42,228 bases of DNA from a virus (taxonomy: Duplodnaviria > Heunggongvirae > Uroviricota > Caudoviricetes), in IMG/VR virus record IMGVR_UViG_648861009_000010. One strand, written 5' to 3'. Below are positions 4,755 to 37,263 of the stretch, piece after piece; position 1 is the stretch's first letter; each line of letters opens with the position of its first letter. The notes below the pieces were generated by a model, which ran no database searches, was not told the origin of the DNA, and was given only the letters and a program-made list of their open reading frames with translations. Made by a program: the position numbers and the translations under genes.

Positions 4755-7193
4755 GAAACTTCCCCATTGGTTGAAAATATGGCTCCTCCAACGCCAAGTG
4801 TATTTCGTGTTGTGCTCAACCTCAGAGGGCTGGAGTCAGAATTAGAATATCCTGTAGCAGAAATAAAAGATCCTCCACTAATAGTCAACTGCGGAACATC
4901 GGCTATATCTGAATAAGTTCTGTCAGCAACAGTATTATTTATAGCCACATATGATCCAAAAAAACTTCTTATTGTTTGGTTTTTAACTTTACTTCCTTCA
5001 ATGGTTATCCTACTACCACAGTCGGCAATAAATCCTGAATCTGCATCCAGCGTTGCATTCATAAAAGAAGCTTCAGATCTCTCTACATCAATCCATCTAA
5101 TATCTTTTGTGGGATTTGCACCAAATACATGACAAATATTAGAGTTAAACCTTACACCATCTTGGAGGTGCATTAATTTTTTTATATCTGTACCCCATAG
5201 CCTTGGAAAATTAACAGATGCTCCTGCATGGCAATCAAATCCCAGCTCAGCCCCTGAGATATCTACAGCCTTTCCTGAAATAACAGCACCAGTGTCTGCA
5301 TTAACGGCTGTTCCACAATTGCGCATATCATTACCAGCAACATCAACGCAACCCGCACCATCAATACGCACACCAAGTGCACATCCATAAAAACCTTTTT
5401 CAATATTTGGTTCAAGGACTTTACCACTTGTTTCTGCATCACTTTCTTCAACGTCATGTCGTCTTGCATCAACATATGCTGTATGAATGCAGGTTAATCC
5501 ACGATATGAGCAATGTATAGTTTTATGGTCGCGTATATTAACATTTGAACCATCTCTTACATTCCATCCTATATAACAATAGCTTGCACTTGACCCCTGA
5601 AAATCTGNNNNNNNNNNNNNNNNNNNNNNNNNNNNNNNNNNNNNNNNNNNNNNNNNNNNNNNNNNNNNNNNNNNNNNNNNNNNNNNNNNNNNNNNNNNNN
5701 NNNNNNNNNNNNNNNNNNNNNNNNNNNNNNNNNNNNNNNNNNNNNNNNATCCACGATATGAGCAATGTATAGTTTTATGGTCGCGTATATTAACATTTGA
5801 ACCATCTCTTACATTCCATCCTATATAACAATAGCTTGCACTTGACCCCTGAAAATCTGCTTTTAACATTATAAATACAATTAACTGACGCAACCGTACT
5901 CTCTGTGCACCGTTCAAACTTGCTTACAGGCATTGATGCCTTGACATTATTTACCAGTTGCAGGGAAGAGTATCTGCTATAAGAAAAATCACATACGTAA
6001 TACCCTTCTGGCATATATGCAGCAACACTTTCCTCATCAGGAGCACATCCGGTATGATATGCACTAATTTTTGCACCAAAACTACCATGAATTCCAACGT
6101 AGAACTTTCGAGCACCTGAATACGGATAGAAATTAAGTTCAGCTTTTTGAGTTACAATAAATGCACAAACATCGCTATCATCTCTATTTTCTTCGATCTG
6201 AATAGCAAATACAGGACTTTTTGCTGCATCGCAAATGTAAAATAAATACTTGTATTCGTAATACGTTCTAACGATTTTAGTAAACAAACGAGTGTCAGAG
6301 AAAACCACTGAGTCTTCTGATGTTATTTTAATCCAAGACAAATCAACACCTGAACTGAATTCAATTTGATAGTTGATAATATGCCCGGTCTTAATTCTTA
6401 TTTCGCAGAAAGCATTACCACCATCCCACATAGGTCTCATTGACTGGGCTGCAATGATTGCATCTTTGAGTGTAGGGTAATCACCCCATTCGCCAACAGT
6501 AATAACAAAAGTATAATATGAGTTAAAAACAGCGGCATTTTTGCCTTTGGATATCAACTCCTTAATCATAAAAATATTATCTTCGTAATCACAAGGAGAA
6601 ATTATATCCCTCATTTTGCTTTGAAATGTTCGTTGTCTTGCCCCGCTTCCTGACGGTATAAACCAACCAAAACCACCAACAACCCCGGCGATTGCAGCAT
6701 CGACATAATTACGCATTGAGCGATTATTTACAGCGTCCTGCTCAAATGATGGATCTGCAAGGTTAGAAATTTTGTTTTGCTTTGCATCGTAATATTTTGC
6801 AAGCAAAGATGGTTTCATCAATGCACGTCTGAACCACCCAAAACATCGCTGGATCAGCATCGTCAGGTAGTCAAATGCATCTTCATGAACTTCGGGGAAA
6901 AATTTTCCCTGATTGCGAAGATCAGTCTCCTGCACCACATCAAGCACACGCTCTATCGTAATTCGCCAGCCAGCAGCAAGCGGCGACGGGAGAACCACTT
7001 CACCGCCACTATAAGTGCCCGCTCCAGTTACCTTATAACCGGTATCCAGAACCAATTCTGTTACGTTCCCGTTCAGGTCAGACACCTGAACAACCAGGTC
7101 GGTTTTTTTGAAAATACGGAAGGTATACGGAAATGATGTCGTAACGCCGTTACCGGTGTATTCGTTGTGGTCAACTTCGGTTGAGACCGTCAT
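4751..7193 (-). CDS. Tailspike: T7-fibre-type N-terminal adaptor domain plus C-terminal parallel beta-helix domain; reading frame broken by gap and frame change (ORFs 5790-7193 and 4751-5917)
   Basis: N-terminus MTVSTEVDHNEYTGNGVTTSFPYTFRIFKK resembles podovirus tail fibre/tailspike anchor domains; C-terminal part has beta-helix-like repeats (NCGTAVNADTGAVISGKAVDISGAELGFDCHAGAS); SD GGAG 7 nt before ATG at 7193; 111-bp exact duplication flanks the N-run. Confidence 0.6.
5608..5748. other. Assembly gap (141 N) inside the tailspike, flanked by 111-bp exact duplicates (5497-5607 and 5749-5859)
   Basis: Identical sequence atccacgatatgagcaatgtatag...ccctgaaaatctg on both sides of the N-run. Confidence 0.95.
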
Positions 7194-7297
7194 GTTAAAT
7201 CTCCAGATAGTCGCAGCACCCGTTGCGCCGCATATCTGGTTATTCTATTACCTGAAAAACCACATATGGATAGAAAGGCTGTGAATATGAATAGATA

Positions 7298-7312
7298 TTA
7301 CCTTTCAGGTAA
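7298..7312. promoter_or_regulatory. Operator-like palindrome TTACC-TTTCA-GGTAA in the divergent tailspike / SOS-gene intergenic region
   Basis: Perfect 5-bp inverted arms; identical 16-mer ATTACCTTTCAGGTAA also at 26830-26845; half-site TTACC at 7248-7252. Confidence 0.55.
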
Positions 7313-7349
7313 TTTGCAAAACGTGCTGGATAGCAAACAAATTATTTGA

Positions 7350-7369
7350 TACTGTATATTTATACAGTT
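7350..7369. promoter_or_regulatory. LexA (SOS) box
   Basis: taCTGTatatttatACAGtt, a perfect CTGT-N8-ACAG with AT-rich spacer, 20 bp upstream of the ATG at 7389. Confidence 0.75.
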
Positions 7370-7388
7370 ATTGCATGGAGAAGATAAG

Positions 7389-7646
7389 ATGCAGCAGTAT
7401 CACTATCCACTGGAAGACGGATTTACCGAAAGGATTCACACGCCGGGAGGCGTCAGGTCACTGGTGGAGGGATCGCACTTGATGAAATTACTCCGGGATC
7501 TCGATAAGGATGGATTTAATGTCGATGGCCCACTTGCCGAACTGACTGCACTGATTAACTACGTCACCAGCTCACAGATGTCTATGCGGGATCTGCAAAC
7601 ACATCTCGACTATTGTGCCGAACAATTACGAAAACAAACCAGATAA
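7389..7646 (+). CDS. Small SOS-controlled protein, paralog of the C-terminal domain of the downstream BRO-N protein; candidate antirepressor
   Basis: 85 aa from ATG with SD GGAG 8 nt upstream; aligns with the 7947-8672 product C-terminus (LLRDLDKDGFNVDGPLAELT...RDLQTHLDY vs LLNQLQEDGHDVSGAAAELT...RDIQTHAEY). Confidence 0.65.
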   Translation: MQQYHYPLEDGFTERIHTPGGVRSLVEGSHLMKLLRDLDKDGFNVDGPLAELTALINYVTSSQMSMRDLQTHLDYCAEQLRKQTR

Positions 7647-7677
7647 GGTTTGCAATTACCAAATGGAGTGCTTATAT

Positions 7678-7692
7678 TTACCTTTGCGGTAA
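7678..7692. promoter_or_regulatory. Operator-like palindrome TTACC-TTTGC-GGTAA
   Basis: Perfect arms; abuts a TTTACA -35-like hexamer; half-site TTACC at 7655-7659. Confidence 0.5.
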
Positions 7693-7783
7693 ATTTACAT
7701 CGCACTCCTCTTGTGCCATAGTAATCGGGCACTGGCAAAATCCAGTGCCGGGATTGGCGTCCCGGGTTACTAAGTGGCGCATA

Positions 7784-7805
7784 CCACGCCAGACGTGGTT
7801 TTTTT
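7784..7805 (+). terminator. Rho-independent terminator-like hairpin in the 300-bp untranslated spacer
   Basis: ccacg-ccaga-cgtgg followed by 7 T; preceded by two more perfect hairpins (7728-7749, 7748-7765). Confidence 0.5.
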
Positions 7806-7946
7806 ATGCGTTAAGCACAGCTATATCCGAATTATGGTGGGCTGGGCAGGGGTCCGAAAGGACGCCGGTACCACTTAGGCCGGTACGCCAACCTTGTCCA
7901 GTTCACCACCAGTAATTGGCGTTGCGGTGGTGATTAAAATCACTAA

Positions 7947-8672
7947 GTGGAGATAACCACCATGGCTAATGCTCAAACTGCCATCTTCAAATTTGAATCT
8001 GTTAACCCTATCCGTTCCATCATTATCGATGGCCAACCATGGTTTGTAGCCCAAGACGTTTGTAGTGCGCTGCGTATCCAAAACGTCACCCAAGCACTTG
8101 AAAAACTGGATGATGATGAAAGGTCTATGTTCAACATAGGGCATGAACATCGTGCAATTTTTGACAGCCGAGTAAAAGAGATCAACATCATCTCCGAGTC
8201 AGGCCTCTACACACTGATCCTCCGCTGCCGCGACGCAGTGACACCAGGCACTATCCCCTACCGCTTTCGTAAATGGGTTACAGGTGAGGTTCTTCCTCAG
8301 ATCCGCCGCACCGGAAGTTACATTAAAAACTCGCTCCCGCAGGAAGAACGCATAAAGATAGTTGCCGACCAGGTAGCCAACGCCACAGCATCAGCAGTGA
8401 TGCAGGCAATGAAGATAGAGAACAAAACCTACAGTGCCCCACTGAAGCCCGGCTACCGCAGCCTGATTCATTCTCCGTCTGGTGTTCTCGGCCTGACGGA
8501 GAACTCACTGCTGATGAATCTGCTGAACCAGTTACAGGAAGACGGGCACGACGTATCGGGCGCGGCGGCGGAGCTGACCACCATGTTCTGCTACATTGTT
8601 GGTGTGAGCAAATGCCTGCGTGATATCCAGACCCACGCGGAGTACATCAACGACAAGGCTGGGTTCTTCTGA
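7947..8672 (+). CDS. BRO-N domain antirepressor-like protein (Ant-like)
   Basis: N-terminal BRO-N signature (IFKFESVNPIRSIIIDGQPWFVAQDVCSALRI ... SGLYTLILRCRDAVTPGTIPYRFRKWVTGEVLPQIRRTGSY); start may be ATG 7947 or 7962. Confidence 0.7.
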   Translation: MEITTMANAQTAIFKFESVNPIRSIIIDGQPWFVAQDVCSALRIQNVTQALEKLDDDERSMFNIGHEHRAIFDSRVKEINIISESGLYTLILRCRDAVTPGTIPYRFRKWVTGEVLPQIRRTGSYIKNSLPQEERIKIVADQVANATASAVMQAMKIENKTYSAPLKPGYRSLIHSPSGVLGLTENSLLMNLLNQLQEDGHDVSGAAAELTTMFCYIVGVSKCLRDIQTHAEYINDKAGFF

Positions 8673-8744
8673 CGGGCGGCGGCACAGGGATGTGCCTTTA
8701 AATAATTCTGTACAGATTGCAGACTGTGGGTGAATAGCGTACTA

Positions 8745-8759
8745 TTACCTTAAAGGTAA
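8745..8759. promoter_or_regulatory. Operator-like palindrome TTACC-TTAAA-GGTAA overlapping the moron promoter/RBS
   Basis: Perfect arms; directly abuts SD GGAGG of ORF 8772; putative -35 TTGCAG (8717) and -10 TACTAT (8740) upstream. Confidence 0.55.
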
Positions 8760-9692: not shown

Positions 9693-10106
9693 TTATAAAG
9701 ATGACTGATATTTTACAACTCTGTTCATGGCATCTTTTTTCACCGAGCTGATATCAGTTCTTATTTTGGCTTCGTCATTACTGCTTATCATGCTATTAAT
9801 TTTTTGCACTGACATGCCGTTTCTTTCAGCCATTGCACATACAGCAGCATCGTATGAAGAACTCGCTGCGATGGATATCACCTTGTTACACTCAAACACA
9901 GCACCTTCAGCAATATCAGATGCCGATGAGGCTGGCTTGGTATAAGTCTTGACGTAGTGATCAATACAACTATCCTTCGCCGTCTTGGCAAGAGAAAAAT
10001 CCATTTTAACTTTGTCGCAATATGCCTTATCAACACCGTCATAAACATCATAGGATGTCGAGCAAGCGGATATCAAAAATACCGATAACAGCAATAATTC
10101 CTTCAT
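9693..10106 (-). CDS. AT-rich phage lipoprotein; candidate superinfection-exclusion / lysogenic-conversion moron
   Basis: 137 aa; lipobox LISAC after a hydrophobic signal; SD AGGA 6 nt upstream; terminal gene after the ejection-protein genes; uses AGA for Arg. Confidence 0.6.
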   Translation of the reverse strand: MKELLLLSVFLISACSTSYDVYDGVDKAYCDKVKMDFSLAKTAKDSCIDHYVKTYTKPASSASDIAEGAVFECNKVISIAASSSYDAAVCAMAERNGMSVQKINSMISSNDEAKIRTDISSVKKDAMNRVVKYQSSL

Positions 10107-21018: not shown

Positions 21019-21476
21019 NNNNNNNNNNNNNNNNNNNNNNNNNNNNNNNNNNNNNNNNNNNNNNNNNNNNNNNNNNNNNNNNNNNNNNNNNNNNNNNNNN
21101 NNNNNNNNNNNNNNNNNNNNNNNNNNNNNNNNNNNNNNNNNNNNNNNNNNNNNNNNNNNNNNNNNNNNNNNNNNNNNNNNNNNNNNNNNNNNNNNNNNNN
21201 NNNNNNNNNNNNNNNNNNNNNNNNNNNNNNNNNNNNNNNNNNNNNNNNNNNNNNNNNNNNNNNNNNNNNNNNNNNNNNNNNNNNNNNNNNNNNNNNNNNN
21301 NNNNNNNNNNNNNNNNNNNNNNNNNNNNNNNNNNNNNNNNNNNNNNNNNNNNNNNNNNNNNNNNNNNNNNNNNNNNNNNNNNNNNNNNNNNNNNNNNNNN
21401 NNNNNNNNNNNNNNNNNNNNNNNNNNNNNNNNNNNNNNNNNNNNNNNNNNNNNNNNNNNNNNNNNNNNNNNNNNNN
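21019..21476. other. Assembly gap (458 N) within the head-tail joining genes
   Basis: N-run; the upstream minus-strand gene runs into it. Confidence 0.95.
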
Positions 21477-26830: not shown

Positions 26831-26845
26831 TTACCTTTCAGGTAA
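26831..26845. promoter_or_regulatory. Operator-like palindrome TTACC-TTTCA-GGTAA
   Basis: Perfect arms; identical to the 7298 site; between the head operon start and the tRNA region; TTGACA hexamer 18 bp upstream on the + strand. Confidence 0.55.
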
Positions 26846-27167: not shown

Positions 27168-27244
27168 GTGGCATTAGCTCAGTTGGACAGAGCAACCGCC
27201 TTCTAAGCGGTTGGTCGCAGGTTCGAATCCTGCATGCCACGCCA
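27168..27244 (+). tRNA. tRNA-Arg (anticodon UCU), phage-encoded
   Basis: Cloverleaf folded by hand: acceptor GTGGCAT/ATGCCAC, D-stem GCTC/GAGC, anticodon stem ACCGC/GCGGT with loop CTTCTAA, T-arm GCAGG-TTCGAAT-CCTGC, discriminator G, encoded CCA. Confidence 0.85.
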
Positions 27245-27330: not shown

Positions 27331-27407
27331 CAGCAGGACGCCATTGCGATGACTTCATGCTGTAAACCCGTACAGCCACGGAAGGCATAACTCATTGCTT
27401 CCAGTTC

Positions 27408-29990: not shown

Positions 29991-30005
29991 TTACCGTTGT
30001 GGTAA
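29991..30005. promoter_or_regulatory. Operator-like palindrome TTACC-GTTGT-GGTAA just upstream of terS
   Basis: Perfect arms, 18 bp upstream of the ATG at 29973; an everted GGTAA-TTG-TTACC overlaps at 29983-29995. Confidence 0.5.
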
Positions 30006-34069: not shown

Positions 34070-34084
34070 TTACCCCTTAGGTAA
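34070..34084. promoter_or_regulatory. Operator-like palindrome TTACC-CCTTA-GGTAA
   Basis: Perfect arms, 4 bp upstream of the ATG at 34066; the spacer contains the SD. Confidence 0.5.
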
Positions 34085-34131: not shown

Positions 34132-34146
34132 TTACCCACTAGGTAA
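34132..34146. promoter_or_regulatory. Operator-like palindrome TTACC-CACTA-GGTAA
   Basis: Perfect arms; 48 bp from the 34070 site. Confidence 0.5.
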
Positions 34147-36426: not shown

Positions 36427-36489
36427 TCACCCATAAGGTAACAAAAATCAAGGATAGTTACCTATGGGGTGCATTTACCTGTTGGGTAA
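36427..36489. promoter_or_regulatory. Immunity-region operator cluster (three TTACC-N5-GGTAA-type sites)
   Basis: TCACC-CATAA-GGTAA (36427-36441), TTACC-TATGG-GGTGC (36458-36472), perfect TTACC-TGTTG-GGTAA (36475-36489); an imperfect site TTACC-TTTGA-GGTAC lies at 36090-36104. Confidence 0.6.
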
Positions 36490-36544: not shown

Positions 36545-37129
36545 ATGAAAAGTATCCAGGACGTCCGCAGGCAAAATCTCAACGACTTGATCGACCGTGA
36601 ATTCAATGGTGTTCAGACGCGGATGGCTGAAAAACTTGGAACTCAGGCAAATCTGGTAAACCGCTGGGCTCTTGGCAAGAAGGTTATCGGCGACCAGGTT
36701 GCGCGAAAAATTGAAGCTGCCGCCAATAAACCCCGTAACTGGCTTGATATCGATCGCTCGCTTTCTCAGGAAGGTTTTCAGCCTGTCGGCCCTAGCGACA
36801 TTGGTCAGCTGGCGGCTCACAACCTGGAACGCTGGATGAGCGAAAGCCGCGACCTTTCAACGCAGGGAAAACTACACCGCGCATCCGGCGTCGCCCAGGT
36901 GACAATCAGCCGCCTGTTAAACAATGAGGTCAGCGTTTCCATTTCCACCCTGGAGAATGTTGCATCCGCATTCGGGCGTCACGGCTATGAATTACTGATT
37001 CACCCGCACGACCCTGCGACCATCAACTATGATCGCTCGCGCTACGCATTGTTACCCGAAACCGAGAAAGCAAAGATCGAAAGTTACATTGAATTTGTCA
37101 TCAACCAGAACGAAAAAAACAAACAATAA
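36545..37129 (+). CDS. Prophage repressor candidate: two XRE-type HTH-like segments, no LexA-like (S24) cleavage domain
   Basis: 194 aa; HTH-like TRMAEKLGTQANLVNRWALGKKVIGDQVARKIEAA and RASGVAQVTISRLLNNEVSVSISTLENVASAFG; no Ala-Gly / Ser-Lys peptidase motifs; own terminator. Confidence 0.55.
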   Translation: MKSIQDVRRQNLNDLIDREFNGVQTRMAEKLGTQANLVNRWALGKKVIGDQVARKIEAAANKPRNWLDIDRSLSQEGFQPVGPSDIGQLAAHNLERWMSESRDLSTQGKLHRASGVAQVTISRLLNNEVSVSISTLENVASAFGRHGYELLIHPHDPATINYDRSRYALLPETEKAKIESYIEFVINQNEKNKQ

Positions 37130-37186: not shown

Positions 37187-37201
37187 TTACCTAATGGGTA
37201 A
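37187..37201. promoter_or_regulatory. Operator-like palindrome TTACC-TAATG-GGTAA (pL-like region)
   Basis: Perfect arms, upstream of TTGACA at 37221. Confidence 0.55.
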
Positions 37202-37248
37202 TTTTTTTAACTCATATCTATTGACATCAAACCAAATACGCATAATTA

Positions 37249-37263
37249 TTACCTCAACGGTAA
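37249..37263. promoter_or_regulatory. Operator-like palindrome TTACC-TCAAC-GGTAA overlapping the -10/+1 of the early-left promoter
   Basis: Perfect arms; TTGACA 37221-37226, -10-like ATAATT about 15 bp downstream, ORF start at 37283. Confidence 0.55.

Follow-up and report, generated by a model that had tools for sequence, protein, structure and literature searches.

The spacer at positions 7647-7946 of a 42,228-nt stretch of phage DNA (IMG/VR record IMGVR_UViG_648861009_000010; the complete stretch is here referred to as the window) lies between a gene of 85 codons (7389-7646) and a BRO-N antirepressor gene, ant (ATG at 7962, end at 8672). The window belongs to a phiV10/epsilon15-like (Uetakevirus) prophage of Escherichia coli, and phage HEMP4 is 98.5% identical to it over 7200-8700. 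The spacer carries an IsrK-family small RNA (sRNA) followed by a C4 antisense RNA, and it probably represents the RNA control module of an antirepressor operon of the P1 immI type, in which C4 masks the ribosome-binding site of ant and IsrK counteracts C4. The module families and their working scheme are already known from P1/P7 and Gifsy-1. An earlier note, made from the sequence alone, had suggested a small RNA or an attenuator controlling the downstream antirepressor and had compared the region with the antisense RNA Sar of phage P22. The tie to antirepressor control is borne out by the IsrK/C4 module and by the target sites a2 and b2 in front of ant. However, the correct equivalent of the spacer is the c4 system of P1/P7 immI together with the isrK locus of Gifsy-1.

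The window was scanned with Rfam at curated thresholds, and a separate permissive scan covered 7200-8200. The isrK family (RF01394) matched with 67.7 bits (threshold 50) over the whole 77-nt model (positions 1-77 of 77), and the C4 family (RF01695) with 66.0 bits (threshold 45) over its full model as well (positions 1-87 of 87). The single sRNA of about 80 nt expected by the earlier note is thus found in the 77-nt IsrK with its predicted promoter and terminator, but the second RNA, C4, was missed. C4 is probably the main repressor RNA, and both sets of target sites were overlooked too; the earlier description was incomplete. Additionally, the family c4-a1b1 (RF03163, 'a1, b1 targets of C4 antisense RNA') matched at 7716-7768 with 44.1 bits, which is below its threshold of 46.7 (E=1.1e-9). 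This match overlaps the isrK match; overlap with c4-a1b1 above threshold was found in the loci L013-L015 and in P1 (L136). In Rfam, c4-a1b1 is placed in the C4 clan (CL00128) and isrK has no clan, even though both families hit overlapping coordinates of one element. The two RNAs and the sites through which they are predicted to interact are:

7729-7805, plus strand: IsrK-family sRNA, the a1-b1 leader of the C4 system
7728-7749 (7729-7748 in IsrK), plus strand: hairpin 1, GGCACTGG/CCAGTGCC, 8 bp, read from the sequence
7748-7765 (7749-7764 in IsrK), plus strand: hairpin 2, CCGGGA/TCCCGG, 6 bp, with a1 in its loop
7754-7760, plus strand: target a1, UUGGCGU, in the loop of IsrK hairpin 2
7770-7777, plus strand: target b1, CUAAGUGG, inside IsrK
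7776-7812, plus strand: clamp helix GGCGCAU/AUGCGUU (7776-7782 with 7806-7812), enclosing the terminator hairpin and the U-tract
7783-7805, plus strand: intrinsic terminator, ACCACG-CCAGA-CGTGGT at 7783-7799 and then T7 at 7799-7805 (sequence and terminator scan)
7830-7913, plus strand: C4 antisense RNA gene, 84 nt
7871-7878, plus strand: b', CCACUUAG, in the loop of C4 hairpin 2
7885-7891, plus strand: a', ACGCCAA, single-stranded in C4
7903-7933, plus strand: hairpin TCACCACC/GGTGGTGA with a2 in its loop; 7-bp core CACCACC at 7904-7910 and GGTGGTG at 7926-7932
7916-7922, plus strand: target a2, UUGGCGU, in the loop of the 7903-7933 hairpin upstream of ant
7943-7950, plus strand: target b2, CUAAGUGG, overlapping the first two bases of the ant Shine-Dalgarno sequence GGAG (7949-7952)

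The segments b' and a' of C4 are exact complements (8 nt and 7 nt, respectively) of both b1/a1 and b2/a2. The corresponding pattern TTGGCGT-N-CTAAGTGG occurs three times in the window (a1-b1 on the plus strand, as reverse complement in C4, and a2-b2 on the plus strand) and nowhere else, with none expected by chance. The isolated segments are predicted to form duplexes of -12.6 kcal/mol (b) and -10.3 kcal/mol (a).

In total, 256 phage records match the spacer module in whole or in part. Fifteen diverse loci were fetched, comprising phiV10-like coliphages, three Klebsiella phages, Enterobacter phage Tyrion, Hafnia phage yong2, a Yersinia phage, two Salmonella phages and Stx phages. In fourteen of these, an antirepressor-type gene was preceded by isrK and C4 as a tandem pair with a gap of about 24 nt; above threshold, the remaining locus, SW-37, contained C4 only. 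A pattern scan of IMG/VR added 120 loci, from which the chance matches L069 and L131 were removed before alignment. The 73 non-identical bona fide modules contained 38 different b' loops and about 15 a' variants in 48 combinations.

The three copies of the segments, in IsrK, in C4 and in front of ant, change together across these modules. This was analyzed without alignment by means of the share of cases in which the longest perfect complement reached 7 nt or more, which was compared between the own module and modules of different specificity:

a1 target: own module 95%, different specificity 5-6%
a2 target: own module 99%, different specificity 5-6%
b1 target: own module 59%, different specificity 5-6%
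b2 target: own module 84%, different specificity 5-6%

The a sites read UUGGCGU, UUGGUCU or UUGAGAC among the loci, each with a matching a'. Examples of the b sites are:

Window: CUAAGUGG / CCACUUAG / CUAAGUGG (b1 / b' / b2)
phiV10: CUAAAAGG
Kp4865-1: CUACAAAGG
yong2: UCGUAAGAG (b1) and UCGCAAGAG (b2)
P27: GAAAAAGG

In an alignment of 46 sequences, 99.4% pairing was found for the a1:a' helix, 6 of its 7 pairs showing double changes; the a':a2 pairs were 90-98% paired, again with double changes. The column counts of the b helices on the MAFFT alignment were poor (64% for b1:b' and 37-43% for b':b2), since the length of the b' loop varies and the columns slip. The b helices were therefore judged by the alignment-free comparison of own and foreign modules. 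Most modules also share a fixed spacing, with a1 at about -80 and b1 at about -64 from the ATGG of C4 and a2 at +5 to +9 past C4. In most of the related modules listed, a b2-like match ends 7-12 nt before the downstream start codon.

One locus, L059 (IMGVR_UViG_2671181028_000005), carries three tandem modules on the minus strand at 9712, 10368 and 11024, 656 nt apart from each other. Each copy consists of IsrK, C4 and a gene for a protein of 120 aa. The three proteins are nearly identical and the a/b specificity differs from copy to copy, so that there appear to be three locks on one gene, each with an RNA key of its own.

The ends of c4 in the P1 record map to 7836 and 7910 in the window, and by homology a mature C4 of 75 nt (7836-7910) is predicted. 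The minimum free energy (MFE) fold of this core is one long stem around two hairpins and a 7-nt single-stranded segment (-43.1 kcal/mol), better than that of its shuffles (z = -4.64). The long stem is 99.7% paired in the 46-sequence alignment and shows compensatory changes. The 7-bp hairpin that had been noticed earlier in front of the ant start is present (7904-7910/7926-7932), but it merely marks the edge of the C4 gene. The arms of the 7903-7933 hairpin are essentially invariant (98.4% paired in the 46 modules). Its 5' arm is at the same time the 3' strand of the closing stem of C4, which makes the two folds mutually exclusive before processing.

Both IsrK hairpins, 7728-7749 and 7748-7765, were found where the earlier note had placed them. 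As they share 7748-7749 they cannot both form at full length at once. Compensatory changes were found in 6 of 7 pairs of hairpin 1. The terminator hairpin with its T7 run was likewise recognized correctly (7783-7799, with T up to 7805) and was also returned by the terminator scan; b1 ends 5 nt ahead of its stem. The clamp helix around the terminator can be formed by the read-through RNA alone. It showed two-sided changes in 6 of 7 pairs among the 46 modules, with variants such as GCGCAU/AUGCG, GCGACA/UUGUCG and GGCGAUA/AUCGUCC. Together, the clamp helix and the 7903-7933 hairpin are consistent with a switch in the long RNA.

The region 7720-7965 as a whole folds better than its own shuffles (z = -4.44). 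In its MFE fold the C4 5' strand AUGGUGGG (7834-7841) can pair with ACCACCAU at the ant start codon (7956-7963); this complementarity showed no conservation in the other loci looked at.

Upstream of IsrK the following sites were found:

7678-7692, no strand: operator-like palindrome TTACCTTTGCGGTAA (TTACC-N5-GGTAA), abutting TTTACA at 7694-7699
7694-7722, plus strand: predicted isrK promoter, -35 TTTACA (7694-7699), 17-nt spacer and -10 CATAGT (7717-7722) after TG (promoter scan)
7650-7678, plus strand: weak promoter-like site TTGCAA, 17 nt, TATATT (consensus scan, 9/12 matches)

The operator palindrome and the promoter-like hexamers, both already pointed out in the earlier note, could be confirmed: the palindrome abuts TTTACA as described, and the promoter scan returned TTTACA and CATAGT with its TG. 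The predicted 5' end of IsrK at 7729 lies 7 nt past the predicted -10 hexamer, and the promoter-like and terminator-like sites of IsrK are at the expected places and retained in relatives. GTGCCATAGT is kept at equal distance from the RNA start in related Uetakevirus loci. The operator-like site is centred near -44 of the predicted isrK promoter and also covers the predicted start of the weak upstream promoter-like site. The latter is a possible counterpart of the repressor-controlled P2c4 (P51a) of P1.

TTACC-N5-GGTAA is a repeated site with 10 perfect copies in the window (0.01 expected), located at 7298-7312, 7678-7692, 8745-8759, 26831-26845, 29991-30005, 34070-34084, 34132-34146, 36475-36489, 37187-37201 and 37249-37263. 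Most copies are intergenic. The copy at 7298-7312 precedes the gene upstream of the spacer, and the copy at 8745-8759 comes after ant. One perfect and two imperfect copies lie within 36427-36489 between divergent genes, beside the gene for an HTH_3 protein of 194 aa (36545-37129) that has no peptidase (self-cleavage) domain. A pair within 37187-37263 flanks a strong promoter-like site. In related phages the half-sites of the palindrome are retained and its centre is variable. Judged from their sequence and distribution, these sites are probably the scattered operator set of the prophage repressor, and the predicted operator at isrK may be bound by the HTH protein encoded at 36545-37129. In the window the operator is nested in a longer imperfect inverted repeat (7665-7708, GGAGTGC ... 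GCACTCC), the arms of which are perfect over 17 nt in phiV10 (L001; GAGTGCTTATATTTACC / GGTAAATATAAGCACTC).

The module agrees with P1/P7 immI in the order and spacing of its parts: operator (putative in the window), promoter(s) (predicted in the window), a1, b1, about 60 nt with a hairpin and a U-run, C4, a2 and b2. In both, a2 follows a few nt past C4 and b2 lies about 10 nt ahead of the start codon of the next gene. The C4 fold is the same, the operon ends in an antirepressor gene and the specificity resides in the short a and b segments, which are the basis of P1/P7 heteroimmunity. The P1 record is annotated in the order C1 operator Oc4, P2c4, P1c4, a1, b1, the 77-nt c4 RNA, a2, b2, with the start of icd 11 nt past b2. 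The P1 leader matched c4-a1b1 with 51 bits and isrK with 35 bits (below threshold), and a hairpin followed by a U-run is located between b1 and c4. Based on these matches and on the hairpin with U-run we identify IsrK with the a1-b1 leader of the C4 system. In P1, RNase P releases the mature c4 RNA (about 77 nt) from a longer transcript. The operator-like sites are scattered like the C1 operators of P1, and the weak upstream promoter-like site resembles the operator-controlled P2c4 ahead of P1c4.

There are differences from P1 as well. The ribosome-binding site covered by b2 in P1 is that of icd, a small gene before ant1/ant2, whereas in the window b2 is found on that of the antirepressor itself. 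No icd-like leader open reading frame (ORF) is present between C4 and ant in the window, so the ribosome-binding site on which b2 would directly have to act is that of the antirepressor gene, which varies the known scheme only slightly. The antirepressor of P1 is Ant1/2 and that of the window a BRO-N protein. Neither the operator sequence nor the presumed repressor is related to C1 of P1, and the plasmid prophage P1 contrasts with an integrated podovirus-like prophage. Finally, an SOS-controlled paralogue of the C-terminal domain of Ant lies directly upstream only in the window.

The Gifsy-1 locus isrK-orf45(STnc1160)-anrP (RF01394) shares the three-hairpin build and the length of IsrK, followed by a C4-type RNA and an antirepressor gene. 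When its sequence is numbered from the +1 of IsrK, G28 and G31 fall into a1 and C159 and C162 into a', so that the published compensatory-mutation pairs G28:C162 and G31:C159 (Hershko-Shalev et al. 2016, PMC4825925) are a1:a' pairs. IsrK supplied in trans raised the translation of anrP 114- to 171-fold, and STnc1160, a stable RNA from the stretch downstream of IsrK, required the isrK promoter (PMC4825925). Hfq binding and trans-activation of antirepressor translation by IsrK are known for Gifsy-1 only. The two loci have different surroundings: the neighbours of the Gifsy-1 locus are the Q antiterminator and isrJ, and those of the module in the window are the tailspike gene and a LexA-controlled gene.

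Taken together, the following scheme is proposed. Transcription from the extended -10 promoter would start at about 7729, just downstream of the operator-like site. As in Gifsy-1, most transcripts would stop at the 7783-7805 terminator and yield the 77-nt IsrK, and some would read through. The read-through transcripts would bear C4 (about 7836-7910), a2, b2 and the ant coding sequence. C4 should fold as a tRNA-like long stem with two hairpins and, by homology to P1, be cut from the transcript. Its single-stranded a' and loop b' would then pair with a2 (7916-7922) and b2 (7943-7950). From the placement and co-variation of the segments, this pairing is expected to cover the Shine-Dalgarno sequence of ant, block its translation and keep the prophage repressed. 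IsrK holds a second copy of both targets and can therefore bind the same surfaces of C4. As a decoy, its a1 and b1 would do so and relieve the block, either from within the long transcript (in cis) or on the free short RNA (in trans).

Several points weigh against this scheme. With one promoter and mostly terminated transcripts IsrK would always be in excess, a stoichiometry problem for a simple decoy, and extra assumptions are therefore needed: a stabler C4, a C4 acting in cis or shielded a1/b1 sites. The duplex at b2 measures 8 bp and covers just two bases of GGAG. RNAcofold of C4 with its targets gave no intermolecular pairs in the form of loop-loop contacts, and this tool cannot open loops into kissing contacts. 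An operator position near -44 does not predict repression on its own. Transcript start, termination efficiency and the processing of C4 are predictions for this phage. Moreover, the published Gifsy-1 model is a different one: there, cis pairing of a1:a' gives the translationally inactive form and control is exerted via the translation of orf45 (PMC4825925), an ORF without counterpart in the window.

If the Gifsy-1 model applied here, the long RNA would alternate between two folds, one inactive and one active, and the ribosome-binding site of an orf45-like ORF coupled to ant would be opened by IsrK in trans. The same RNA families in the same order argue for it. In addition, orf45 starts at AUG107, which is the AUG conserved in the 5' stem of C4; the window has this AUG at 7834. 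However, translation of orf45 is required for anrP and the orf45 stop overlaps the anrP start, whereas the ORF from 7834 comprises 14 codons (14 aa) and has its stop at 7878. This leaves 83 nt to the ant ATG, so that the ORF does not adjoin ant and stop-start coupling is impossible. Across 71 modules the length of this ORF ranged from 3 to 416 aa, and in only 29 of the 71 did it reach to within 20 nt of the downstream start or beyond this start. We consider this mechanism improbable for the window.

A somewhat better case can be made for control by attenuation or termination, although it is unlikely to be the main regulated step. Here, in the manner of the CI RNA of phage P4, C4 would pair with nascent a1/b1 or a2/b2 and thereby alter read-through at the terminator or Rho-dependent polarity before ant, and IsrK would mostly be a by-product. 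P4 CI RNA with seqA and seqC is similar by description, a processed stable RNA that pairs up- and downstream of itself on its own transcript; IsrK has been described as a structural homologue of the SeqA RNA of P4, and STnc1160 has been compared with CI RNA, which terminates by pairing with seqA and seqC (PMC4825925). In P4, however, the outcome is premature transcription termination on replication genes and not the masking of an antirepressor ribosome-binding site. The abutment of b1 on the terminator hairpin and the conserved, co-varying clamp helix around the terminator and U-tract fit attenuation. So does P1, where blocking icd translation lowers ant transcription. IsrK of Gifsy-1 in trans also lifted a transcriptional fusion 8-fold, far less than the translational effect of 139-fold (PMC4825925). 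A translational block would require b2 to lie on the Shine-Dalgarno sequence, as it does in most of the related modules listed. Attenuation and translational block are not mutually exclusive, and the attenuator that the earlier note had offered as an option might act as a secondary layer.

An antisense RNA against ant like Sar of P22 is a very improbable alternative. Sar also limits antirepressor synthesis and has a comparable position beside the ant gene, and a weak terminator-like hairpin was found on the minus strand at 7961-7946. Sar is an opposite-strand RNA across the ant ribosome-binding site and fully complementary to it, whereas the regulator here is on the same strand, upstream, and pairs via two short segments. 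The earlier analogy therefore does not hold: both RNAs are sense-strand RNAs upstream of ant, no promoter-like site was found on the minus strand in 7100-8100, and the permissive Rfam scan matched isrK, C4 and c4-a1b1 alone. Compared with its shuffles, the reverse strand of C4 gives no fold signal (z = -0.26), and the U-tract terminator and the G-U-rich stems function on the plus strand only. A small protein encoded by the spacer, as implied by an 'Ash family protein' coding sequence (CDS) laid over the C4 RNA in the records of phages ZX5 and yong2 and by a 'hypothetical protein' in others, has a negligible probability. The statement of the earlier note that the spacer contains no ORF is right as far as credible genes are concerned, but mechanical ORFs exist at 7613-7915 (100 aa, TTG start) and 7774-7878 (34 aa). 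Their frames are not conserved among relatives, where substitutions keep the RNA pairing instead, and RefSeq annotates nothing in the spacer; a protein-coding spacer was ruled out on the lack of frame conservation.

The genes next to the module and the LexA box are:

7350-7369, plus strand: LexA box TACTGTATATTTATACAGTT, CTGT-N8-ACAG, read from the sequence, 5' of the 85-codon gene
7389-7646, plus strand: gene whose 85-aa product is a stand-alone paralogue of the C-terminal domain of Ant, encoded downstream
7962-8672, plus strand: BRO-N antirepressor gene ant, 236 aa (Pfam Bro-N, 1e-19; PHROG anti-repressor Ant families)

The 85-aa protein shares 43% identity over 74 aa with residues 155-228 of Ant. 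It matched phrog_450 and also phrog_1760 'anti-repressor' (E=6.6e-07) in PHROGs; a Pfam search gave no useful match, so its placement is by PHROGs and the paralogy to Ant alone. From sequence, the product of this gene with its LexA box is suggested to be a mini-antirepressor under SOS control, in tandem with the RNA-controlled antirepressor. The phage thus seems to possess a pair of antirepressors, of which one is unlocked by SOS and the other by RNA. No terminator-like site was predicted on the plus strand in 7159-7783, i.e. none between the 85-aa gene and IsrK.

Further features were observed elsewhere in the window. A second LexA-like box (CTGT-N8-ACAG) is located at 27360, and a tRNA-Arg gene (anticodon TCT) inside the phage region at 27168-27244 (plus strand). 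A tRNA-like element in the spacer was considered and rejected, as ARAGORN reports this tRNA-Arg alone. The Rfam family STnc490, an Hfq-binding sRNA, matched over its full length (146 bits, threshold 56) at 2146-2269 on the minus strand, several kb away. Runs of N, masked or unassembled, are present at 1542-1930, 5608-5748 and 21019-21476, the second of which breaks the tailspike-region ORFs just upstream of the spacer.

The spacer had megablast-level matches in 457 of 5,426 complete E. coli genomes, and its annotation is corrected here. The stretch is empty in the RefSeq E. coli genomes. In the phiV10 record it is marked just 'terminator', with a similarity to a Shigella hypothetical protein. 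Elsewhere, 'Ash family protein' and over-long 'putative antirepressor' labels extend over IsrK/C4. Such protein-coding annotations were found in L002 (2144-2257, phage ZX5), L009 (988-1671, phage yong2) and L011 (831-1973, Salmonella phage 118970_sal3); the conserved ATG in the C4 stem is the likely source of these mis-annotations.

The present analysis adds the annotation, the broad three-way co-variation and the recognition of one module, but no new kind of system. Rfam isrK, c4-a1b1 and the 'orf45'/STnc1160 of Gifsy-1 are three named entities that form parts of one module; a 2025 review gives IsrK and c4 as unrelated entries. The arrangement points to a way in which these prophages could gate induction: the candidate repressor lacks a self-cleavage domain, and an SOS-controlled mini-antirepressor stands beside a second antirepressor that is apparently locked by RNA.

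A more far-reaching interpretation is offered tentatively and is rather doubtful as a whole: IsrK might be a dedicated target-mimic (sponge) of C4 throughout this large family of phages including P1, the decoy might in the present lineage also be wired to SOS and the a/b segments might serve as an immunity code. The sponge part, if true, would explain the unexplained a1/b1 sites of P1, and 'orf45' of Gifsy-1 would have to be reread as a C4 RNA. With no predicted terminator between the LexA-controlled gene and IsrK, SOS transcription might, speculatively, supply a1-b1 RNA. DNA damage would then lead to extra a1-b1 RNA ending at the IsrK terminator, C4 would be titrated and the second, larger antirepressor unlocked. 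If the code part is true, the at least 48 a/b combinations would keep the antirepressors of co-resident prophages separately locked.

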